Source: Escherichia phage LHE83. From it: 64,000 nucleotides of DNA. Positions 20,179 through 43,828 of the stretch are shown one piece after another. The stretch lies in sequence record OQ561750. One strand, written 5' to 3'. The translations under genes were made by a program, and so were the position numbers. The notes beneath the pieces were generated by a model. The model was not told the origin of the DNA. It was given only the letters and a program-made list of their open reading frames with translations, and searched no databases. The stretch's first letter is position 1. Every line of letters starts with the position of its first letter.

Positions 20179-20874
20179 ATGCACTATTGTTATATGACCA
20201 CTATAAAATCCGAAAATGATACTTATTACTATTTCGGTAAACACACCGGATTTATAGATGACGGGTATGTCGGTAGTGGCAAATTCGTAGAAGATGCTAA
20301 GGCCTCAGGGAAATGCTCTTTTAATATAGAGGCCTTATGTTATTTTGAGACAAGTGAGCTTGCTTTTGAATTTGAAGAGCTTTTGGTAGAAAATGCCATG
20401 TCCGAAATAACTAACTGCGTCAATATGAAACCTGGTGGTATAGGTGGTTATGCTCCTCCGACACCGGAAAGACTTGAAGAACAGTCTAAAGAAGTTACCG
20501 AACGCTGGCAGGACCCTGAATATAAAGAGCGGGTTTCCAACTCTATTAAAAAGTCTTGGGAAAATGAAGAGCATCGAGAAATGATGCGTCGAATCCATAA
20601 AGAGTATAATGCTAATCCTGAAGTTAGAGAGGCCAAAAGTAAAAAGAACAAAGAATATTACTCTATAGAGAATTATTCCAAGTTTGCTAAAAATCCAACA
20701 TATGTATTATATGATGAGTTCCATGAACTTTGGATTAAGGAAGGACGCCCTAGTTATTCTAAATTCTGGCGCAAATGCTGTGAACTATGTTATCCATATA
20801 CGATAAATAATTTTAGACCACTAGTTGATAGGTTTAAGAGGGCTTATGAATCAGGTGAAGTTAACAAAAAATAA
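20179..20874 (+). CDS. GIY-YIG homing-endonuclease-like protein (Seg/Mob-like)
   Basis: YYYFGKHTG...YVGSGK GIY-(10 to 11 aa)-YIG spacing; basic C-terminal half; 3' end overlaps the gene 55 start. Confidence 0.55.
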
Positions 20875-22358: not shown

Positions 22359-22400
22359 CTTTATATTTGGATGATAAAATGAACCAACTGAGGAGAACAT

Positions 22401-22544
22401 ATGGAACTACTTTTAGGATATGTCGTGTTATTCATGGCATTCTACACATTCACACGAGCTTGTTGGATAGGATTCTTTTCCACTCCTGACGGGTTCATTT
22501 CAATAATTTTATTTTGCATTGCAATAACGGCGCTTGGCTTATGA
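22401..22544 (+). CDS. hypothetical small membrane protein (47 aa)
   Basis: Read by eye; CTGAGGAGAACATATG Shine-Dalgarno; hydrophobic; ATGA overlap with the gene 47 start. Confidence 0.4.
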   Translation: MELLLGYVVLFMAFYTFTRACWIGFFSTPDGFISIILFCIAITALGL

Positions 22545-29054: not shown

Positions 29055-29075
29055 AAGGGACTTCGGTCCCTTTTT
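29055..29075 (+). terminator. rho-independent terminator
   Basis: GGGAC-TTCG-GTCCC followed by TTTTT. Confidence 0.6.
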
Positions 29076-29133
29076 GGAGTATAATGATTCATCAACAAAC
29101 AAAAGACAATCACTCGTCTATAAAGGAAATGAA

Positions 29134-31845
29134 ATGCAAGAATTCTATTTGACAGTCGAACAAATCGGTGATAATATTCTCGAACGTTACATCGATAAAA
29201 ATGGTAACGAACGTAGTCGTGAAGTTCCATACAAGCCTACAATGTTTATGCATGCTAATCCAGAGCAAGCCGTAAAATACATTGATATCTATGGTAAGGG
29301 TTGTGTTAAGAAAGAATTCGATTCTATGCGTGATGCATCCCAATGGATGAAACGTATGGATGATATGGGTCTCGAAGCCCTGGGTATGGACGACTATAAA
29401 TTAGCCTATTTGTCTGATACCTATCGTAAAGAAATCAAATATGATTCTTCTAAGATTCGTATTGCTAACTTCGACATCGAGGTAACATCTCCTGATGGAT
29501 TCCCTGAACCAGCTCAGGCTAAACATCCTATCGATGCCATTACCCACTACGACTCGATTGACGATAAATTCTATGTATTCGACCTTTTAGTTTCGCCTTA
29601 TGGTACTGTCGAAGAGTGGTCGATTAAAATCGCTGAGAAACTCCAAGACGAAGGCGGTGACGAAGTTCCACAAGAAATCATTGACAAAATCGTTTATCTT
29701 CCGTTTAATTCTGAAGAAGAAATGATGCTTGAGTACTTGAATTTCTGGCAACAGAAAACTCCTGTGATTTTGACTGGATGGAACGTTGAGTCGTTTGACG
29801 TACCATACGTTTATAACCGTCTGAAAAATCTGTTCGGTGAGAACACTGCTAAGCGATTAAGCCCACATCGTAAAACTCGTGTTAAAGTTATCGAGAACAT
29901 GTACGGTGCTCGTGAAATCATTACATTGTTCGGTATCTCTGTTCTGGATTATATCGACCTGTATAAAAAATTCAGCTTTACCAACCAGCCTTCTTATTCT
30001 CTGGATTATGTTTCTGAATATGAATTGAAAGTAGGTAAGTTGAAATATGATGGCCCAATCTCCAAGTTACGTGAGACGAACCACCAACGATATATTTCCT
30101 ATAACATTATCGACGTATATCGTGTAGTGCAGATTGATATGAAGCGTCAGTTCATTCTTCTGAGTTTGGACATGGGTTATTATGCCAAGATGCAGATTCA
30201 GTCGGTGTTCAGCCCAATTAAGACTTGGGACGCTATTATCTTTAATAGCCTTAAAGAACAAGGCAAGGTAATTCCACAAGCTCGCTCACACGTGGTCCAA
30301 CCTTATCCTGGTGCTTTCGTTAAGGAACCGATTCCTAACGCTTACAAATATGTAATGAGTTTCGACCTTACATCTCTGTACCCGAGTATCATTCGACAAG
30401 TGAATATAAGCCCAGAGACCATCGCAGGGACATTCGCTAACGCACCGATACATGAATATATTGCCGGAACTGCTCAGCGTCCTAGCGACACCTACAGTTG
30501 CTCTCCTAACGGCATGATGTACTATAAAGACCGTGAAGGTGTGATTCCGACAGAAATCACCAAGGTATTCTTGCAGCGTAAAGAACATAAAGGTTACATG
30601 CTTGCAGCTCAACGTAATGGTGAGTTAATTAAAGAAGCATTGGAAAATCCTAATCTCTCAGTTGATAGTCCACTGGATATCGATTATCGTTTTGACTTCT
30701 CTGACGAAATCAAAGCCCAGATTAAAGCACTGTCAGCGCCTTCTTTAAGAGAAATGTTGAAGAAAGCCGAGCTCACTGAAGTTGCAGGTAACACTGCTCA
30801 GATTAACCGTAAGTTGCTTATCAACTCCCTTTATGGTGCACTTGGTAACGTATGGTTCCGTTACTATGACCTCAGGAACGCAACTGCAATCACATTGTTT
30901 GGTCAAATGGCCCTCCAATGGATTGAACGTAAGGTTAACGAATATCTGAATAGCGTGTGTAAGACTGAAAACCAGAAGTTCGTGCTCTACGGTGATACTG
31001 ACTCCATTTATGTTAAGGCAGATGCAATCATCAATAAAGTAGGCGAAGATAAATTCCGTGATACTAACCACTGGGTCGACTTCTTAGATAAATTTGCACG
31101 TGAACGTATGGAACCAGCTATTGATGCAGGCTTCCGTGAGATGTGCGAATACATGAACAACAAACAACACTTGATGTTCATGGACCGAGAAGCTATCGCA
31201 GGTCCTCCACTTGGTTCTAAAGGCCTTGGTGGATTCTGGACAGGCAAGAAACGTTATGCACTTAACGTTTGGGACATGGAAGGTACTCGTTATGCTGAAC
31301 CACACTTGAAAATCATGGGTCTCGAAACTCAGAAATCAAGTACACCTAAAGCAGTTCAGAAAGCTCTGAAGGAATGTATCCGTCGTATGCTTCAGGAAGG
31401 CGAGGCATCTTTGCAAGAATATTTCAAACAGTTTAATAAGGAATTTAACGAACTCGATTATGTAAGCATTGCAGCAGTATCCAGTGCTAACAACATCGAG
31501 AAATATAATGAAGGTGGATTCCCGGGTTCTAAATGTCCATACCACATCAAAGGTTGCTTAGCTTACATGCGTGCTTCTGCAGGTGATTTGACTATGCCTC
31601 GTATCGTTGATGGTGAAAAGGTATATGTACTGCCACTTAAAGAAGGCAACCCGTTTGGTGAAGCTTGTATGGCATGGCCGTCAGGTATTGAACTTCCGGT
31701 TCAGATTCGTGACCAAGTCCTCCGTTGGATGGACTACAACGTACTGTTCCAAAAGACCTTTATCAAACCTCTGACCGGTTTTACTGAGTCTGCTAAAATC
31801 GACTACGAGAAAAAAGCAACATTATTTGATATGTTCGACTTTTAA
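29134..31845 (+). CDS. 43: DNA polymerase gp43 (family B)
   Basis: Start at internal ATG (MQEFYLTVEQIGDN) after AAAGGAAATGAA RBS, giving 903 aa; exo motifs FDIEV and YNIIDV; pol motifs SLYPSI, KILINSLYGALG, YGDTDS; track start 29074 is TTG. Confidence 0.95.
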   Translation: MQEFYLTVEQIGDNILERYIDKNGNERSREVPYKPTMFMHANPEQAVKYIDIYGKGCVKKEFDSMRDASQWMKRMDDMGLEALGMDDYKLAYLSDTYRKEIKYDSSKIRIANFDIEVTSPDGFPEPAQAKHPIDAITHYDSIDDKFYVFDLLVSPYGTVEEWSIKIAEKLQDEGGDEVPQEIIDKIVYLPFNSEEEMMLEYLNFWQQKTPVILTGWNVESFDVPYVYNRLKNLFGENTAKRLSPHRKTRVKVIENMYGAREIITLFGISVLDYIDLYKKFSFTNQPSYSLDYVSEYELKVGKLKYDGPISKLRETNHQRYISYNIIDVYRVVQIDMKRQFILLSLDMGYYAKMQIQSVFSPIKTWDAIIFNSLKEQGKVIPQARSHVVQPYPGAFVKEPIPNAYKYVMSFDLTSLYPSIIRQVNISPETIAGTFANAPIHEYIAGTAQRPSDTYSCSPNGMMYYKDREGVIPTEITKVFLQRKEHKGYMLAAQRNGELIKEALENPNLSVDSPLDIDYRFDFSDEIKAQIKALSAPSLREMLKKAELTEVAGNTAQINRKLLINSLYGALGNVWFRYYDLRNATAITLFGQMALQWIERKVNEYLNSVCKTENQKFVLYGDTDSIYVKADAIINKVGEDKFRDTNHWVDFLDKFARERMEPAIDAGFREMCEYMNNKQHLMFMDREAIAGPPLGSKGLGGFWTGKKRYALNVWDMEGTRYAEPHLKIMGLETQKSSTPKAVQKALKECIRRMLQEGEASLQEYFKQFNKEFNELDYVSIAAVSSANNIEKYNEGGFPGSKCPYHIKGCLAYMRASAGDLTMPRIVDGEKVYVLPLKEGNPFGEACMAWPSGIELPVQIRDQVLRWMDYNVLFQKTFIKPLTGFTESAKIDYEKKATLFDMFDF

Positions 31846-31847
31846 GT

Positions 31848-31880
31848 GTTTACATACCACAAGGAACGTGGTAGTATCCT
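31848..31880 (+). promoter_or_regulatory. early promoter cassette
   Basis: GTTTAC...GTAGTATCC...CCTATCAAC; TACCAC/GTGGTA inverted repeat. Confidence 0.5.
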
Positions 31881-31907
31881 TCCTATCAACTACATGAGGA
31901 AATTACA

Positions 31908-32144
31908 ATGGAAGCTTTAATCGTTAGTGCTGGTGTTTTAGGATTCGGTTCTCTGGTTATTATGTTCATCGGTTACTTTTTACCATGGATTCTGGCTCTT
32001 CTGCGAGGCACTCGTAGTAATGTCGGAATTTTCTTCCTTAATCTCCTGTTAGGCTGGACGATGATTGGTTGGGTAGTGGCTTTAATCTGGGCTATCGTCG
32101 CTGAACGTAAATCAAACGCACAAATCATTATTGTTAAGCAATGA
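31908..32144 (+). CDS. imm: superinfection immunity protein Imm-like
   Basis: 78 aa, two transmembrane segments; FFLNLLLGWTMIGWVVALIWA resembles the Imm family signature; syntenic with T4 imm downstream of 43. Confidence 0.65.
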   Translation: MEALIVSAGVLGFGSLVIMFIGYFLPWILALLRGTRSNVGIFFLNLLLGWTMIGWVVALIWAIVAERKSNAQIIIVKQ

Positions 32145-32285
32145 AAATAATTATTTTATTTCTTATAATGACTGCCTTTACCATTTATTGGGCAGTGGCA
32201 ATTCCGCCAATGATTCCGACACTCATCATTGGATGGATTATTCTTATAGCACAAATTAAGTATAACTGTTTTAATTGAGGATATT

Positions 32286-32786
32286 ATGAAAAAGTTAATT
32301 ATCGCAATGAGTATGCTCCTATCAGGTTGCGCGGTCCAATATGGTGATACAGTTTCGGCTGATGAAGTTGGTAAAGCTCGTATCGCAGCTGAACAGAAAC
32401 AATTCGATGGCGAAATGAAATTCCGTGCAGGTTCTGGACTTGTGTACACCCGAGCTAATAATCAATGCGGTAATAACTGTGCAAAATATGCTCAACAAGA
32501 AATCGAATTCCAACGTGAACAAGAGTCCAAGCGTGAAGCGGTACTAGCCAAACACCAGGCAGAAATGAAGCGTCAAGATGATTTGTACAAAAAGCAGAAA
32601 CTGTATGCGATGTGCGTAAACCATATCAATCTACAGATTTCCATCCACGAGGCTCGTTATTACGAAATGCTCGAAACCGAGAGCTTCGGTAAAGCTCGTG
32701 ATTATAAGAAACAAATCGATAAGCTCAAGACCAAAGCACCGGCGGCAATAGAACAGTGTATTGAAATCGGTAAAGATAAGATTTAA
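32286..32786 (+). CDS. hypothetical lipoprotein
   Basis: Signal peptide with LSGC lipobox; charged helical remainder. Confidence 0.55.
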   Translation: MKKLIIAMSMLLSGCAVQYGDTVSADEVGKARIAAEQKQFDGEMKFRAGSGLVYTRANNQCGNNCAKYAQQEIEFQREQESKREAVLAKHQAEMKRQDDLYKKQKLYAMCVNHINLQISIHEARYYEMLETESFGKARDYKKQIDKLKTKAPAAIEQCIEIGKDKI

Positions 32787-32846
32787 GCAATACCAATTTA
32801 TTAAAAATAGTGTATAATGTACCTACATTCACTTGAGGAACAGATA

Positions 32847-34520
32847 ATGAAAAAGGTTGTTATTTTAGGCGCGGGTCTTGGCTCACGGTTGTATCCAATT
32901 ACCAACGAAATCCCGAAGGTACTGGTTAACTACAAACAACATACTGTATTAAAACATTTGTATGATTTGTATAGTAATCAATCAGATGAAATTATTCTGG
33001 TTATTCACAGCAAATTTAACGACCTCGTTAAAGGCTATATTAAATCCATTAACATGATTAATAGTGATAAGCCTAAATTCACTATTCGTAACGTTGATGT
33101 TGCCAATGGTTCGGCTCATGCTATCGATTGCATTGCCGAAGATATCATTGGGCACAATGTCTTGTTTAACTGGTGTGATATTATTCCTGAAGGTCATAAA
33201 GTTGAGTGGGATAACGACTACTGTTATACCTATGGGACCGACTGTCGTTTTACATTTGAAGAACCGTACTTGCGTGAAATTGGTACCGGTGGTGGCGTAG
33301 TTGGCTTGTATCAGGTGGCTAATTGGACAGGTTTCGACCGTTCTAATTATGGTGAAGACCTTGCTGACAACCTGGATTCAATGGTCCATTTGACTGAACG
33401 TAAGTTAGACTTTGTAGTTGATGTTGGTGACAAACTGAAACTGGCTAAGGCCCATGAAGATTCTGAAATTAACCGTGAATTTAATAAATTAGAGTTCACT
33501 GAGAATCTAGCTATTAAAGTACCTACAAACGAATTAGGTAAAGAAATCCAATCTAAAGAAATCAATTGGTACAATTCTATTGATTCTGAATTCGTTCCTA
33601 GCATTGTAGACTTTGCTCCAGGTGAATTCATTAAAATGGAACGTATCTTTGGTCGAACCATGGCAGATGCCTACCGGTTTATGTCTAAAGAAACTAAAGT
33701 CCTAATGGTTTATAAGGTTATTAGTGCATTACGTTCGTTCGGTGGAACTATCGATAATCCGTCCGATGAGCAATGGTATTCTGATGTTAAGAAAGAAGTA
33801 TTGGACAAGGTCCTTATTCGTAATGCTTCTATTGCCGGATTGATTGAAGGCTTTGCTCCACAGGGTATTACCCATGTTAACGACTTCAAGGTAGGCGACC
33901 CAGAAAAACTTCTTCGTCACGCCTTAGAAATTCTGTCTGAACATAAAGAACCGTACCAACTTATTCATGGCGACCCGCACTACAGTAATATTATGTTGTC
34001 GGACGAAGGTAATATTAAAATCATCGACCCACGTGGTTATTTTGGTAATAGTTCTAAAGGCCCTGCGATTTATGATGAAGCTAAGGTGCTTTATTCTATC
34101 GATGGTTATGACAAATTTAACTCTGACCCTCTATGGGGTGGCTTAACTCGTAACGGAACTCGTGTATTCGTTGATATTGAAAAGGTTATGCCTTTAGATG
34201 ATATTCCGATGTGTACATTTAAGCACAAGCTCTGGATTGCCGTTATTTGGATGGCATTGGCAGGTTACTTTAAAAATAACCCTCTGAAAGCTCTGGGCGC
34301 TTATTACAATGGGCTATATCAACTGAGTGTGCTGCTGAAGCGGCATCCTCGTAAGCGTAAGCTTATCACAGGTGAATTCGTTGATGAAGTTCGCGACCCT
34401 ATCACGGCTCAAATTATCACTCGTTGTCCTGATAAGTGGGTTTTGCTTGACCAGGAAACTGGTGTAAAATATAAACCTACAGGTTCTACCGAACTCCACA
34501 AACAATGGAAGAAAATTTAA
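32847..34520 (+). CDS. bifunctional nucleotidyltransferase / kinase (LicC- or MurU-like N-terminus, APH/choline-kinase-like C-terminus)
   Basis: ATG after GAGGA Shine-Dalgarno; N-terminal KVVILGAGLGSRLYPIT sugar-phosphate nucleotidyltransferase motif; C-terminal IHGDPHYSNIML...IIDPRGY kinase catalytic-loop pattern. Confidence 0.7.
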   Translation: MKKVVILGAGLGSRLYPITNEIPKVLVNYKQHTVLKHLYDLYSNQSDEIILVIHSKFNDLVKGYIKSINMINSDKPKFTIRNVDVANGSAHAIDCIAEDIIGHNVLFNWCDIIPEGHKVEWDNDYCYTYGTDCRFTFEEPYLREIGTGGGVVGLYQVANWTGFDRSNYGEDLADNLDSMVHLTERKLDFVVDVGDKLKLAKAHEDSEINREFNKLEFTENLAIKVPTNELGKEIQSKEINWYNSIDSEFVPSIVDFAPGEFIKMERIFGRTMADAYRFMSKETKVLMVYKVISALRSFGGTIDNPSDEQWYSDVKKEVLDKVLIRNASIAGLIEGFAPQGITHVNDFKVGDPEKLLRHALEILSEHKEPYQLIHGDPHYSNIMLSDEGNIKIIDPRGYFGNSSKGPAIYDEAKVLYSIDGYDKFNSDPLWGGLTRNGTRVFVDIEKVMPLDDIPMCTFKHKLWIAVIWMALAGYFKNNPLKALGAYYNGLYQLSVLLKRHPRKRKLITGEFVDEVRDPITAQIITRCPDKWVLLDQETGVKYKPTGSTELHKQWKKI

Positions 34521-34879
34521 TGCATCTGTGTTTTGATATCGATAATACCATTACTCACTGGCAAGATGACCGTGATTACGAAAACTTTAAACCGGACACC
34601 GAAATGGTGTCCATGATTAATAAGCTTTATGATGAAGGGTACGAGATTACCTTGTTCACTGCCCGTGGTATGACTTCATGCGGCCCGGGTCGAATCTTGG
34701 TTGAAGTAGTTCCTGCATTAGTTAAGAACCTTGAAAAGATTGGATTGAAATATCACAATCTGCTTACACATAAGCCGAGTTATACTTTTATCATCGATGA
34801 CCGAGCAATCCGTCCTGACCACTTTAAAGAAATGGTTCGTGAAGGAACTCTTGAAACCTATAAGGCATATCATCCGTGA
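34520..34879 (+). CDS. HAD-superfamily phosphatase
   Basis: TAATG coupling to the upstream gene; motif I FDIDNTIT (DxDxT) near the N-terminus; LFTARG motif II-like. Confidence 0.6.
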   Translation: MHLCFDIDNTITHWQDDRDYENFKPDTEMVSMINKLYDEGYEITLFTARGMTSCGPGRILVEVVPALVKNLEKIGLKYHNLLTHKPSYTFIIDDRAIRPDHFKEMVREGTLETYKAYHP

Positions 34880-35412
34880 AACCAAAAATCATTGTTATCG
34901 ACGGCCCGGATAATTCCGGGAAGTCTACTTTAATTGAATCACTTTTATCTGATAAGAAATATCGTCTTATTGATTTCCCTAAAAAGATTAATGGCAAATG
35001 CATTTCATTAGGGACCGATAATGACAAGGCTTTAGTCGAGACGTTGTATAAGTTTTTAGACCCTAATTTCGTTTACATCCTTGACCGTGGTTATCCAAGT
35101 AATATTGTTTACTCGGGATTCCTTCGCGGTGAAATGGACCCTTATGTAGAACTGGAAGATTGGAAAAGGTTTAAATCTGAATTCAATATTATTGAGGTTA
35201 TTTTAACCCGTAATCCACTGGATAAAGACTTTGAAGATGACCTTATTAAATTAACCAAAGATGAGTTCAACCTAACTATCCGGCAATATGAAACATGTTT
35301 TGAAAACGTGTTTAAAATCTTAAATCACGACGGCCATAATAACTTGCTTAACGTCGATATGGTAGAATTAAAACGTCTGAATGAATATATTGAAAATAAG
35401 GTGAATAAATGA
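34876..35412 (+). CDS. P-loop kinase (nucleoside/nucleotide-kinase-like)
   Basis: GTG start overlapping the upstream stop; KIIVIDGPDNSGKSTL Walker A resembles dNMP or small-molecule P-loop kinases. Confidence 0.55.
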   Translation: MKPKIIVIDGPDNSGKSTLIESLLSDKKYRLIDFPKKINGKCISLGTDNDKALVETLYKFLDPNFVYILDRGYPSNIVYSGFLRGEMDPYVELEDWKRFKSEFNIIEVILTRNPLDKDFEDDLIKLTKDEFNLTIRQYETCFENVFKILNHDGHNNLLNVDMVELKRLNEYIENKVNK

Positions 35413-36107
35413 AACACATTACCGCTGTTAGTTTTGAAAACGCGTTTAAGCAAATGAACGAAGAAATCCTGGAAGCTCCACAGTTTGCAGTTGATTCTCG
35501 TATCGGCCGTTGTTATGAAATTGGTTCTGCTTCGGTAGAAGTACTGGATGCAAGCACCTATAAATTCACCGACCCTCGTATTAATCGTATCAACTATGAT
35601 TATGCCGAATCTTTCTGGAAGTTTATGATTTCTGGTGGTACTGACGCCGCCGAAGCATTTAAGGAATACCCTAATGTTGCTAAGTTCATTGATAAGCCGA
35701 AAAGTGACGTATTGCCTGCAAACTTCAACACTTTCTATGGACCTAGAATTGTGGCCCAACTCCCAGCCTTACTTAAAGAGCTTAAAGAGAAGCCTAACTC
35801 AAGACGAGTTGTGTTCCAAATTCTCCAAGAACAAGACCAAGCCCTCCTTGATTCTGACGAATCCTTAGAATATCCATGTACTGATTCAGTGACATATTAT
35901 ATTCGTGATGGACGTCTTTATGCACATACCCATATGCGTTCACAGAACTGTGCTATTGTTATGCAGCTGGATTTCTATCTGCAGGGTAAACTGATGGCCT
36001 TTATTGCTGAACAGTGTGGTGTTGGTCTGGGTACGTATTCCCATACTATGGTTAGTGCACACGTATTTGAACGTGATTTTGACTACGTTCGAGGATTCCT
36101 GAAATGA
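35409..36107 (+). CDS. 42: dCMP hydroxymethylase (thymidylate-synthase fold)
   Basis: KPNSRRVVF, YPCTDSVTYYIRDG...HMRSQN and VSAHVFER align with T4 gp42 active-site segments from memory; syntenic position. Confidence 0.75.
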   Translation: MKHITAVSFENAFKQMNEEILEAPQFAVDSRIGRCYEIGSASVEVLDASTYKFTDPRINRINYDYAESFWKFMISGGTDAAEAFKEYPNVAKFIDKPKSDVLPANFNTFYGPRIVAQLPALLKELKEKPNSRRVVFQILQEQDQALLDSDESLEYPCTDSVTYYIRDGRLYAHTHMRSQNCAIVMQLDFYLQGKLMAFIAEQCGVGLGTYSHTMVSAHVFERDFDYVRGFLK

Positions 36108-36997
36108 GTTTGTTTATCGTTCCTATTTTCAGTATGCGTAGTTACGAAACAGGTGAATATGCCGTCCTTAAGGACGGTAATTTTCAACTCCATTTAAACC
36201 GTGCTTGCCCAGGTGATTATCTGGCTTATCCTAGAAATTCGAGCGATATCAAAGAATGCATTGAATTATTTCCTGAACTGAATTTTGTACCTCTTTGGTA
36301 TAAAGAAAATGCTTATGAAACTCGTAAACATTTTTGGTCTGAAAATGAGTTCGTTGTTGATTCGTTAATCGAATACTATGACTGCTCAGGATTGGTAACC
36401 GATATCACAGGTTATGATGGTGCTCATACCGTACAATTCAACTTTAACATTACAATGGACCCTGAAGTTCCTCGTTATTACATCGATGAGTTTATTGATA
36501 CCGACGTGGGTTCAGTTGAACGTTCGATTTATACCACAGTCCTGAATCAATGCCAGAAAGACGTCCTGGTGTCACGAGGTGCGTCCTCTGATAAGATTTT
36601 TGTAGACCAAAAGGTAATTAATCCGGCAGTAATTGAGCGTTACTCTGAAGGCCTAGCGCCTATTAAAATTGATGGTATTTTCCATCCATTCCGTATCTCT
36701 GATAAATGTTATCAATTCGAAAGAGTTGTAGACCAAGCTGCGGCTGAAGGTTCTCGCCTTTATATCACCGATCCGAATGATTCATTTAAGCGTGAAGACT
36801 ATCGTCCTGATGTAGAGATTATTAAATTCAAACCGAGTAAGGTTGAATATTATCAGATTCTGAAATCAAGACCTCATATCATTTATCATGAGAATCCCAG
36901 TTTAGTATTTCATCCTGGTCTAGCTGAATTCATTTATTTCGGTGCCCATATCCATTCTGAGCACGAAATGCCAAGTTATGAGGACGTGGTCCTTTAA
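36104..36997 (+). CDS. hypothetical protein in the beta-glucosyltransferase slot (putative DNA glycosyltransferase)
   Basis: ATGA-coupled to gene 42 and directly upstream of uvsX, where T4 carries beta-gt; no recognisable similarity to T4 beta-gt. Confidence 0.45.
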   Translation: MSLFIVPIFSMRSYETGEYAVLKDGNFQLHLNRACPGDYLAYPRNSSDIKECIELFPELNFVPLWYKENAYETRKHFWSENEFVVDSLIEYYDCSGLVTDITGYDGAHTVQFNFNITMDPEVPRYYIDEFIDTDVGSVERSIYTTVLNQCQKDVLVSRGASSDKIFVDQKVINPAVIERYSEGLAPIKIDGIFHPFRISDKCYQFERVVDQAAAEGSRLYITDPNDSFKREDYRPDVEIIKFKPSKVEYYQILKSRPHIIYHENPSLVFHPGLAEFIYFGAHIHSEHEMPSYEDVVL

Positions 36998-37074
36998 CGC
37001 TGTAAATGTGAAGTGATATAATTACCCTATCTTAAAACGTGAGTAAAATATAATGATGCCTATGGAAAAATATA

Positions 37075-38247
37075 ATGTCTGATTTAAAATCCCGTTTGAT
37101 TAAAGCTTCTACTTCTAAAATGACTGCCGACCTGACCAAATCTAAATTGTTTAATGGTCGTGACGAAGTTCCTACTCGTATCCCTATGCTGAATATTGCA
37201 TTAGGCGGTGCGTTGAATGCAGGCTTACAATCAGGTTTGACAATCTTTGCTGCTCCATCTAAACACTTTAAAACGTTGTTTGGACTTACCATGGTTGCGG
37301 CATATATGAAGAAATATCCAGACGCAATTTGTTTGTTCTACGACTCTGAGTTTGGTGCTTCAGAATCTTATTTCCGTTCGATGGGTGTTGATTTAGAACG
37401 TGTGGTTCATACACCAATCCAGTCAGTCGAACAGCTTAAAGTTGATATGACCAACCAATTAGAAGAAATTACTCGTGGCGAAAAGGTTATTATCTTTATC
37501 GACTCCATCGGTAACACTGCTTCTAAGAAAGAAACCGAAGATGCTTTGAACGAGAAAGTTGTAGGTGATATGACTCGTGCTAAATCACTGAAATCTCTGT
37601 TCCGTATCGTAACACCTTATCTGACCATCAAGGATATCCCTTGTGTAGCAATTAACCACACGGCTATGGAAATTGGTGGAATGTACCCTAAAGAGATTAT
37701 GGGTGGTGGTACTGGTATTCTGTACTCTGCTTCTACCGTGTTCTTTATCTCTAAACGTCAGGTTAAAGATGGTACTGAGCTCACTGGTTATGACTTCACA
37801 CTGAAGGCCGAGAAATCTCGTACGGTTAAAGAGAAATCAACGTTCCCGATTACAGTGAACTTCGAAGGTGGTATCGACCCATTCAGTGGATTGCTTGAAA
37901 TGGCTACTGATATTGGCTTTGTCGTGAAACCTAAAGCTGGCTGGTATAATCGTGCATTCCTTGACGAAACCACAGGCGAAATGGTTCAAGAAGAAAAAGC
38001 ATGGCGTGCTAAAGCTACTGATTGTGTTGAGTTCTGGGGACCACTGTTTAAACATGCTCCGTTCCGTGAAGCAATCGAGAATAAGTATAAGCTTGGTGCA
38101 ATTAATTCTATTAAAGAAGTTGACGATGCGGTTAATGACCTTATTAACTCTCGTGTCTCTAAGAACGTTGCTGTTAAATTAGGTGGTAATGCCCAAAGCG
38201 CCGCTGATATCGAAAACGATTTGGAAGAGATGGATTTAGATGACTGA
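37075..38247 (+). CDS. uvsX: RecA-like recombinase UvsX
   Basis: 390 aa; MSDLKSRLIKASTS...; Walker A APSKHFKT region; near-identical to T4 UvsX from memory. Confidence 0.9.
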   Translation: MSDLKSRLIKASTSKMTADLTKSKLFNGRDEVPTRIPMLNIALGGALNAGLQSGLTIFAAPSKHFKTLFGLTMVAAYMKKYPDAICLFYDSEFGASESYFRSMGVDLERVVHTPIQSVEQLKVDMTNQLEEITRGEKVIIFIDSIGNTASKKETEDALNEKVVGDMTRAKSLKSLFRIVTPYLTIKDIPCVAINHTAMEIGGMYPKEIMGGGTGILYSASTVFFISKRQVKDGTELTGYDFTLKAEKSRTVKEKSTFPITVNFEGGIDPFSGLLEMATDIGFVVKPKAGWYNRAFLDETTGEMVQEEKAWRAKATDCVEFWGPLFKHAPFREAIENKYKLGAINSIKEVDDAVNDLINSRVSKNVAVKLGGNAQSAADIENDLEEMDLDD

Positions 38248-40393: not shown

Positions 40394-40597
40394 ATGCCTA
40401 AATTAGAGAAAGTAGTGTTTATTGGTTGGTTTGAAAATGGTAATATGTTTACCAAAGAAACCGTTCTGGATGTTAGTGACCAAAATATGATTGAATGGGT
40501 TACAGTGCAGTATGCAGAAGTGAATAATGCGCTGGTGAAAGCCTTTGTTGATGACAATAAAGTTTTTGAGTGTGATTACCGTTCTAACGAAAAATAA
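40394..40597 (+). CDS. dmd: Dmd (antitoxin against RnlA/LsoA-type RNases)
   Basis: KVVFIGWFENGNMFTKE...QYAEVNNALVKAFVDDNKVFECD resembles T4 Dmd from memory. Confidence 0.75.
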   Translation: MPKLEKVVFIGWFENGNMFTKETVLDVSDQNMIEWVTVQYAEVNNALVKAFVDDNKVFECDYRSNEK

Positions 40598-40599
40598 CA

Positions 40600-40635
40600 G
40601 TTTACATCAAAGGGATAATGCAGTATATTATCCCT
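40600..40635 (+). promoter_or_regulatory. early promoter cassette
   Basis: GTTTAC...GCAGTATATTATCCCTATCAACT; GGGATAAT/ATTATCCC inverted repeat. Confidence 0.5.
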
Positions 40636-43306: not shown

Positions 43307-43828
43307 ATGGCACACTTTAACGAATGCTCACAACTTATTGCTGGTGTTGATAAAGCTGAGGAAGCTTATTTTAATGCTCTGATTCACGAAGATAAAGACC
43401 CTCTGCAGGTTATGCTTGATATGCAGAAATCATTACAGGTCCGTTTGGCTAAAGATAAACCTGAATATAACCGTCATCCTGATGACTTGGCTACTGCAGG
43501 TGAAGTTGTTGATTGGTTGCGCAATCAGAAAGATTATATTGATGATGAATTCCGCGAACTTCTGACTTCTCTTGGTGGCATGAGCAATGGCGAAAAAGAT
43601 GCGAGCGCTGTATGGAAGCCTTGGAAAGCTCAACATGCTGAACGTCGTGAAACCCTGATTAACGATTTGTCTCCTGAAGACCAGCTCGAAATTAAATTCG
43701 AAATGATTGATATTCTGCACTTTGTTCTGAATATGTTCCAAGGTCTTGGACTGACTGCTGAAGAAATCTTTAAACTGTATTACCTGAAAAATGCCGAGAA
43801 CTTTGCTCGCCAGGACCGAGGTTATTAA
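43307..43828 (+). CDS. 56: dCTPase/dUTPase gp56
   Basis: MAHFNECSQLIAGVDKAEE...DPLQVMLDMQ...EIFKLYYLKNAENFARQDRGY near-identical to T4 gp56 from memory. Confidence 0.9.
   Translation: MAHFNECSQLIAGVDKAEEAYFNALIHEDKDPLQVMLDMQKSLQVRLAKDKPEYNRHPDDLATAGEVVDWLRNQKDYIDDEFRELLTSLGGMSNGEKDASAVWKPWKAQHAERRETLINDLSPEDQLEIKFEMIDILHFVLNMFQGLGLTAEEIFKLYYLKNAENFARQDRGY

Follow-up and report, generated by a model that had tools for sequence, protein, structure and literature searches.

A probable Dhakavirus version of the arabinosyl-5-hydroxycytosine pathway in a five-gene cluster of Escherichia phage LHE83

The DNA of phage RB69 was first reported to contain arabinosyl-hydroxymethylcytosine, and the products gp52:53 and gp55 were proposed to make uridine diphosphate (UDP)-arabinose (PMC6024577). 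This structure has since been revised: in RB69 and in Acinetobacter phage DLP3 the arabinose is attached to C5 of cytosine via an ether oxygen derived from 5-hydroxycytosine (PMC13326640), and the revised RB69-type structure is supported by an independent Mosigvirus study (PMC13390438). In this article we analyze a stretch of 64,000 nucleotides from Escherichia phage LHE83 (record OQ561750), the whole of which we refer to as the window, and conclude that five genes at positions 32847–36997 are very probably the Dhakavirus version of the arabinosyl-5-hydroxycytosine pathway. The system is already known from work published in 2025–2026 on RB69 and HY126 and is not new. An earlier note on this DNA had proposed a cytosine hypermodification module with its own supply of nucleoside diphosphate sugar and had linked it to the arabinosylation of RB69; the module is borne out by full-length RB69/HY126 orthologs of all five genes, and the link to RB69 was correct. 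The note was uncertain whether the pathway had been biochemically defined, which for the orthologs it already has, and PMC13326640 lists the Dhakaviruses with the genera in which the syntenic cluster occurs.

The enzyme activities discussed below are taken from the literature on orthologs. RB69 gp48 and DLP3 gp80 are flavin-binding homologs of thymidylate synthase that make 5-hydroxy-deoxycytidine monophosphate (5hodCMP) with incorporation of 18O from O2, and an Asn at the position of Asp169 in ThyA has been proposed as diagnostic for 5hodCMP synthases and validated on nine further homologs (PMC13326640). On the sugar side, PMC13326640 summarizes work of He et al. 2026 on HY126, according to which AfhE is a bifunctional enzyme, a kinase of arabinose-5-phosphate as well as a UDP-arabinose pyrophosphorylase, and AfhF, a phosphatase that requires Mg, turns arabinose-1,5-bisphosphate into arabinose-1-phosphate. 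The route in that summary runs from arabinose-5-phosphate via arabinose-1,5-bisphosphate and arabinose-1-phosphate to UDP-arabinofuranose, with no free sugar. The DNA of Shewanella phage Thanatos contains one O-linked pentose per cytosine, and loss of the AfhE ortholog nearly abolishes growth of this phage (PMC12838424), which has been called mono-arabinosylated (PMC13326640). A review of 2010 listed RB69 and JS98 as having homologs of genes 42 and 56 and no glucosyltransferases, and asked about their modification (PMC2993671).

The five-gene cluster and its base chemistry

Region 32700–37100 of the window is 99.6% identical to Salmonella phage vB_SalD_ABTNLS3 and 95–99% identical to Escherichia phages QL01, WG01, Bp7, MX01 and IME08. 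QL01 is classified as a Dhakavirus and, on these identities, the source of the window is a Dhakavirus-type T4 relative. The cluster consists of five open reading frames (ORFs) on the + strand (Table 1), flanked by DNA polymerase and imm (29074–32144) and by uvsX (37075–38247). The earlier note had described five co-directional, coupled genes in the imm-to-uvsX interval, and its ORFs, its four junctions and the motifs that it quoted were all found. The fusion and HAD genes meet at TAATG (34518–34522) and the HAD and kinase genes at GTGA (34876–34879), whereas the last two junctions are ATGA overlaps (35409–35412 and 36104–36107); regarding operon boundaries, we make no claim beyond these overlapping stops and starts. 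Since each of the five has a full-length homolog in RB69 and HY126, the comparison indicates that they are not chance ORFs.

In RB69 and HY126 the pathway genes (Afh genes; RB69 gp45–gp55 and gp3) lie in the same slot, between DNA polymerase/imm and uvsX, and identities to the window proteins range from 37 to 79%. The two sets share the 5hodCMP synthase signature, the AfhE-type fusion, the AfhF-type HAD phosphatase, the GT-B transferase and the thymidylate-kinase-like kinase. The window differs in having no gp55, gp50, gp49 or gp3, and in the position of its kinase gene, which stands between the HAD and synthase genes rather than after the transferase gene.

Table 1. Positions of the cluster genes and associated features in the window; functions are predictions from orthologs
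Feature	Position	Strand	Length	Basis or remark
Expression signals	32811–32839	+		Extended -10-like TGTATAAT at 32811–32818 (suggestive); GAGGA Shine-Dalgarno at 32835–32839; ATG at 32847
Fusion gene, putative AfhE-type bifunctional enzyme	32847–34520	+	557 aa	Pfam; HY126/RB69 alignment
HAD gene, putative AfhF-type HAD phosphatase	34520–34879 (start maybe 34505)	+	119 aa	Motif I DIDNT; HY126/PDB matches
Thymidylate-kinase-like P-loop kinase gene	34876–35412	+	178 aa	Constant member of such clusters
Thymidylate-synthase homolog gene, predicted 5-hydroxy-dCMP synthase	35409–36107	+	232 aa	Thymidylate-synthase fold; flavin/O2-dependent dCMP C5-hydroxylase predicted from orthologs
Putative GT-B fold glycosyltransferase gene	36104–36997	+	297 aa	Ortholog of RB69 gp46:47 and HY126 XAN60474 (“arabinosyltransferase 1”)
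Putative gp56-type dCTPase/dUTPase gene	43307–43828	+	173 aa	Pfam dUTPase_2; outside the cluster

The product of the fourth gene matches Pfam Thymidylat_synt and is 79% identical both to RB69 gp48 and to PDB entries 9IQU/9IQC/9IR2 (E 1.5e-125), whose sequence is that of HY126 XAN60475. Signature residues were read from an alignment of the window protein, E. coli ThyA, T4 gp42, HY126 and RB69 gp48; the local sequences are RSCDVFLGLPFN in ThyA, RSNDVVFGFRND in T4 gp42 and RSQNCAIVMQLD in the window protein. Beside the catalytic C157 (Cys146), the window protein has N180 (D169N), D188 (N177D, the change for specificity to dCMP) and E154 (L143E). The N177D and L143E changes also occur in T4 gp42, but gp42 keeps D169 and is 25% identical to the window protein (E 1.8e-9). 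There is no second gp42/synthase homolog in the window, and the one other superfamily member in the complete QL01 genome is an ordinary thymidylate synthase. Because of the 79% identity to 5hodCMP synthases, the D169N change and the low identity to gp42, the acceptor base, as judged from the alignment, is 5-hydroxycytosine with an ether-linked sugar and not hydroxymethylcytosine.

The earlier note had read this gene as a gp42-family dCMP hydroxymethylase and had taken hydroxymethylcytosine as the acceptor, to be arabinosylated by a free-sugar route. The gene does occupy the gene-42 slot between imm and uvsX, its product belongs to the thymidylate synthase superfamily and shares two substitutions with gp42, and RB69 was originally reported to carry arabinosyl-hydroxymethylcytosine (PMC6024577). 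However, that report has been explicitly corrected (PMC13326640; PMC13390438), and the Asn at the D169 position together with the 25% identity to gp42 led us to reject the hydroxymethylase label. We therefore consider hydroxymethylcytosine a very improbable acceptor in this phage.

With 5-hydroxycytosine as the acceptor, the synthase homolog would hydroxylate dCMP at C5 with flavin and O2. A gp1-type deoxynucleoside monophosphate kinase encoded outside the window, possibly together with the cluster kinase, would then carry 5hodCMP towards the triphosphate, and the polymerase would incorporate the modified nucleotide in place of deoxycytidine (dC) while a gp56 dCTPase removes dCTP. The gp56-type ORF in Table 1 corresponds to QL01 gp027, annotated “gp56 dCTPase”, and by the T4 paradigm (PMC2993671) it would both supply dCMP and remove dCTP. 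The T4 system (gp42, alpha-gt, beta-gt, gp56 and gp1) resembles the window in its thymidylate-synthase-fold enzyme acting on dCMP, its dCTPase, its addition of sugar by GT-B enzymes and its genomic slot. It differs in that T4 performs a folate-dependent hydroxymethylation and uses host UDP-glucose, whereas a flavin/O2-dependent 5-hydroxylation, a different sugar and a nucleotide donor made by the phage are predicted here; tblastn with T4 alpha-gt and beta-gt gave no match in the window or in QL01.

Activation and transfer of the sugar

The first gene encodes a fusion protein with Pfam matches to NTP_transferase (2.5e-8) and APH (9e-6). Its N-terminal domain (about residues 1–215) is a sugar-1-phosphate nucleotidyltransferase and its C-terminal domain an APH-type kinase with the motifs HGDPHYSN and IDPRG. 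The protein aligns end-to-end with HY126 XAN60479 (AfhE; 43% identity, E 7e-144), is 41–44% identical to RB69 gp52:53, and matches phrog_4098 over its full length; its predicted activities are D-arabinose-5-phosphate 1-kinase and UDP-arabinofuranose pyrophosphorylase. The product of the second gene contains FDIDNTIT, with the DxDxT motif, and is 62% identical to HY126 XAN60478 (ortholog of RB69 gp51) and to PDB 9IQW (E 1.6e-51), which has the sequence of the HY126 protein. It also matches 1XPJ (3.5e-12) and an NCBIfam capsule biosynthesis phosphatase subfamily (1.9e-14), and has a weak HAD match in Pfam; the predicted reaction is conversion of arabinose-1,5-bisphosphate to arabinose-1-phosphate. 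Another weak HAD-like tblastn match, at 43400–43621 (E 0.007), lies in frame within the gp56 dCTPase gene and was dismissed as chance.

Taken together with the published route, arabinose-5-phosphate drawn from the host would be phosphorylated at C1 by the kinase domain of the fusion protein, the HAD phosphatase would take off the 5-phosphate, and the nucleotidyltransferase domain would convert arabinose-1-phosphate and UTP to UDP-arabinofuranose. A kinase, a HAD phosphatase and a nucleotidyltransferase working on arabinose-5-phosphate had been anticipated by the earlier note, and this part stands, whereas its order of steps and its free-sugar intermediate do not. In the summary given in the text of PMC13326640 the kinase comes first, on arabinose-5-phosphate, and the substrate of the phosphatase is the 1,5-bisphosphate, although free-sugar wording is still present in Table 1 of the same paper.

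The 297-aa product of the last gene is 67% identical to HY126 XAN60474 and RB69 gp46:47, which agrees with the glycosyltransferase role suggested for it before, and has 117 homologs in public data. Nothing in Pfam matches it, and no sequence similarity to either T4 beta-gt (as already proposed) or alpha-gt could be detected. Its predicted role, as a GT-B fold enzyme, is to place the arabinofuranose nearest to the base on the 5-hydroxyl. Another possibility is that the last gene encodes a UDP-pentose pyrophosphorylase and that the transfer is carried out by a different protein, for example the N-terminal domain of the fusion. The purified Thanatos protein TH1_063, ortholog of the 297-aa protein with 52% identity, is reported to make UDP-xylose from UTP and xylose-1-phosphate (PMC12838424), and no reconstituted DNA transferase activity for this family is found in PMC13326640 or PMC12838424. 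The GT-B fold and the 67% identity to the RB69 and HY126 proteins point to a transferase, and we regard the pyrophosphorylase alternative as rather improbable. As an observation in its own right, the formation of UDP-xylose by TH1_063 (L015 8093–8995) conflicts with its GT-B transferase fold.

Several points weigh against the arabinosyl-5-hydroxycytosine pathway as we describe it for this phage. Literature searches found no nucleoside chemistry for any Dhakavirus in the papers examined. The activities of AfhE and AfhF reach us second-hand, through the summary of He et al. 2026 in PMC13326640. Single transferases showed no arabinosylation of DNA containing 5-hydroxycytosine, and whether the acceptor of the first sugar is DNA or a mononucleotide is unresolved (PMC13326640); transfer of the first arabinose to such DNA has not been reconstituted in the literature. 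The pyrophosphorylase activity of TH1_063 fits poorly with a simple transferase role. Finally, the fusion protein is only 43% identical to AfhE, and the phage has no copy of the isomerase that first pointed to arabinose; because of these two points, the identity of the sugar is something that we infer.

The last point bears on an alternative with the same base chemistry and another sugar, in which an abundant host pentose phosphate such as ribose-5-phosphate is activated and attached to 5-hydroxycytosine. Neither the window nor the complete Dhakavirus genome of QL01 has an isomerase, full modification of cytosine would by a rough estimate need far more arabinose-5-phosphate than the host normally makes, and the pentose of Thanatos was left without stereochemical assignment by its discoverers (PMC12838424). 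On the other hand, identity to orthologs from the arabinose pathway is 62% for the HAD phosphatase and 67% for the transferase, E. coli has both KdsD and GutQ, and Thanatos, isomerase-less and with a single transferase, is treated as mono-arabinosylated (PMC13326640). We consider a pentose other than arabinose unlikely.

The P-loop kinase and the acceptor of the first sugar

The kinase encoded by the third gene contains VIDGPDNSGKST, has a weak P-loop match in Pfam and is 37% identical to HY126 XAN60473 and RB69 gp45. Its family profile matches thymidylate kinases as well as YorR of SPbeta (E 1e-6). The structures nearest to the protein are those of thymidylate kinases with deoxythymidine monophosphate (dTMP) bound. 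Residues invariant in the family are the P-loop G-x-D-x-x-G-K, whose Asp we take to be the deoxyribose contact, and a D-R pair, presumably the DR(Y) monophosphate-binding motif of thymidylate kinases. The protein thus has a P-loop nucleoside monophosphate kinase fold with the P-loop Asp and DR motif of the thymidylate kinase type. A tblastn search (E up to 0.001) found the kinase in 344 records of the phage collection. Among the matches listed, all come from T4-type (Straboviridae) groups that carry the cluster, bar one weak match in a Pseudoalteromonas phage, and none from M6, ViI, SP10 or phiW-14. In proteins, an exhaustive search took the place of a word-indexed one, which gave only 9 relatives; with E up to 1e-10 as the limit, the exhaustive search yielded only 46 cluster representatives.

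We conclude from these comparisons that the protein is probably a nucleotide kinase tied to the modified pyrimidine and not to the sugar; our best guess for its substrate is a 5-modified dCMP. The earlier note had left its role undecided, and we agree that a best guess is all that can be offered here. The gp1-type kinase gp159 of RB69 already phosphorylates 5hodCMP (PMC13326640), and the cluster kinase must therefore be redundant or have another job.

Distant relatives of the kinase occur as fusions, to HhH-GPD domains (P0158, P0161), to a UDG-like domain (P0189), and to a dCMP-type thymidylate-synthase homolog that keeps D169 (P0182). These fusions suggest a wider set of uncharacterized pyrimidine-modification systems. 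They also bear on the possibility that the kinase acts on DNA, phosphorylating a group on the modified base in the manner of the 5-hydroxymethyluracil DNA kinases (5-HMUDK): the HhH-GPD and UDG-like domains have DNA-glycosylase folds, and their fusion recalls the association of 5-HMUDK with aGPT-Pplase (PMC8989533). No aGPT-Pplase-like gene is present in the cluster. The dTMP-bound thymidylate kinases as closest structures and the retained P-loop Asp and DR motif speak against this role, the P0182 fusion points to a mononucleotide substrate, and O-glycosylation needs no phosphorylated intermediate. We ranked the DNA kinase role low, since fold and motifs are thymidylate-kinase-like, and hold it to be quite unlikely.

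A different order of events would give the kinase a job of its own. In this order glycosylation precedes replication: the strongly acidic GT-B enzyme would arabinosylate 5-hydroxy-dCMP, the dedicated kinase, invariably encoded next to it, would phosphorylate the arabinosyl-5-hydroxy-dCMP, too bulky for the general deoxynucleoside monophosphate kinase to handle, and the polymerase would incorporate the glycosylated nucleotide. We leave this possibility open because no activity of a single transferase on DNA containing 5-hydroxycytosine was seen (PMC13326640), because the trio of synthase, transferase and kinase is conserved even where no sugar genes are adjacent, because a distant kinase relative is fused to a dCMP-type thymidylate-synthase homolog, and because the isoelectric point of the transferase is 4.9 compared with 9.05 for T4 beta-gt, which is at best a weak hint about the acceptor. 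In our estimate glycosylation before replication has a small chance of being correct.

The minimal form, its relatives and its significance

RB69 and HY126 have four additional genes: the isomerase gp55, the U32-peptidase-like gp50, gp49, and the second transferase gp3, located between rIIA and gene 39. Using tblastn, we found no homologs of gp55, gp50, gp49 or gp3 in the window, its rIIA-gene 39 interval included, or in the whole 170-kb genome of QL01. In the phage collection the gp3-type transferases are confined to Mosigvirus-like and Acinetobacter records and one Tegunavirus record. The isomerase is found in 276 records compared with 344 for the kinase; Klebsiella phages account for 25 of the kinase records, yet they are absent from the ten names most frequent in the isomerase matches. 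Because of these counts and because there is no isomerase in the Thanatos interval, the arabinose-5-phosphate isomerase (SIS domain) appears to be accessory to the cluster and not defining for it. By gene content the cluster of the window is a minimal five-gene core.

The arabinose-5-phosphate isomerases of E. coli are KdsD and GutQ. Since the phage has no isomerase of its own, we infer that arabinose-5-phosphate is supplied by these host enzymes. Hydroxylation would depend on O2, and the single transferase predicts one arabinose per cytosine, that is, mono-arabinosyl-5-hydroxycytosine, in contrast to the mixture of mono- and di-arabinosyl products in RB69 and HY126.

A partial precedent for the minimal form may be seen in Thanatos, by analogy. 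Its genes TH1_060 to TH1_065 include the same five core genes as the window (44–71% identity). In both phages the interval from polymerase to uvsX encodes one GT-B transferase and lacks an isomerase; Thanatos differs in carrying a U32-like gene, with 79% identity to RB69 gp50, and in having its genes in the RB69 order. Rhizobium phage RL38J1, which we compared by its description, makes hexosyl-5-hydroxycytosine and has adjacent genes for a nucleotide kinase, a first glycosyltransferase and a 5hodCMP synthase (PMC13326640 Table 1); unlike the window it uses the hexoses galactose and glucose, with a donor made by UDP-galactopyranose mutase. Among metagenomic contigs, the 383-kb phage contig L012 has the same trio as RL38J1, with an adjacent D169N synthase homolog (53%), transferase (39%) and kinase (36%), and no sugar-activation genes were found within 8 kb of the trio. 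The 356-kb contig L013 contains a full set of isomerase, AfhE-like protein, HAD protein of a different, KdsC type, D169N synthase homolog, transferase and kinase, whereas in the 26-kb contig L014 the gene after that for the transferase encodes a protein with 50% identity to RB69 gp50, with no synthase homolog in view. As judged from these three arrangements, synthase, transferase and kinase make up a module for the base that can exist apart from the module for the sugar.

Two accompanying genes deserve mention. In L012 (6426–6932) and L013 (1–523), which are unrelated jumbo-phage contigs, a Flavodoxin_2-family protein of the NAD(P)H:flavin oxidoreductase type is encoded beside the 5hodCMP synthase cluster, and it is plausible that it supplies reduced flavin to the hydroxylase. 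The window has no Flavodoxin_2-family gene, and the host would therefore have to supply the reduced flavin. The U32-peptidase-like protein is encoded in tight linkage with the transferase in RB69 (gp50, L001 4493–5662), Thanatos (L015 9560–10693, 79%) and L014 (9049–10125, 50%), and RB69 gp50 has a weak NCBIfam match to UbiU. The U32 family includes the O2-independent hydroxylation factors UbiU/UbiV, TrhP and RlhA, and the U32-like protein could represent an anaerobic route to 5-hydroxycytosine. In view of its absence from the window, one may ask how a gut phage would hydroxylate dCMP where O2 is lacking.

Regarding starts and expression signals, the ORF list extends the fusion gene to 32817, where the longer ORF would begin within the TGTATAAT box; the start at 32847 is favored by the GAGGA Shine-Dalgarno sequence, the RefSeq annotation of QL01 and the alignment with HY126 AfhE. 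For the HAD gene, 34505 (124 aa) and 34520 (119 aa) are both possible starts; the alignment with RB69 gp51 begins at 34511, and RefSeq uses 34520. A scan of the region for the sigma-70 consensus gave 18 sites compared with 17.7 expected from a shuffled control, so that the assignment of TGTATAAT as a promoter is only suggestive, and a terminator scan did no better in the region than in shuffled sequence. No tRNA genes were found in the window.

Between imm and the cluster lies a 166-aa ORF (32286–32786, +) with a lipoprotein-like N-terminus (MKKLIIAMSMLLSGC), which belongs to PHROG 1754 (unknown function) and lacks a counterpart in RB69; the peptide encoded a short way upstream of it, at 32168–32275, is 58% identical to RB69 gp54. 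Elsewhere, immediately upstream of gene 55, there is a 231-aa ORF (20179–20874, +) that has a match to the homing endonucleases of phrog_314 (E 7.5e-20) and none in Pfam; it looks like a mobile insertion, since the segment 20129–20867 has no counterpart in QL01. Conversely, the HNH endonuclease gene of QL01 (gp060, between gene 47 and a-gt.2) is absent from the window at 22383–22541, where the megablast alignment with QL01 breaks, as it also does at 626–1015, 1113–1357 and 40403–40633.

None of the profile libraries used (Pfam, NCBIfam, PHROGs) has a name for the pathway, and their labels are generic or misleading; most of the PHROG families matched are of “unknown function”. RefSeq (QL01, RB69, Bp7) and PHROGs label the AfhF-type HAD phosphatase “phosphoheptose isomerase”. 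In public records the 5hodCMP synthase is a “thymidylate synthase”, the kinase a “thymidylate kinase”, and “hypothetical” is used for both the transferase and the AfhE-type fusion; such names have spread through dozens of genomes. The main value of the present analysis is consequently a correction, in that public annotations hide a complete DNA hypermodification pathway and JS98-type phages, described as hydroxymethylcytosine phages lacking glucosyltransferases, should become arabinosyl-5-hydroxycytosine phages. Residual interest lies in the isomerase-less form with a single transferase, in the acceptor of the first sugar and in the conserved kinase, for which the five-gene cluster offers a compact system to settle its job. 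Dhakaviruses are used, and have been suggested, as therapeutic phages against E. coli, Shigella and Salmonella, and the modification determines how they respond to restriction enzymes, Type IV systems, CRISPR-Cas and nanopore sequencing. The minimal form predicts that the phage would depend on the host for arabinose-5-phosphate and on O2 for hydroxylation.

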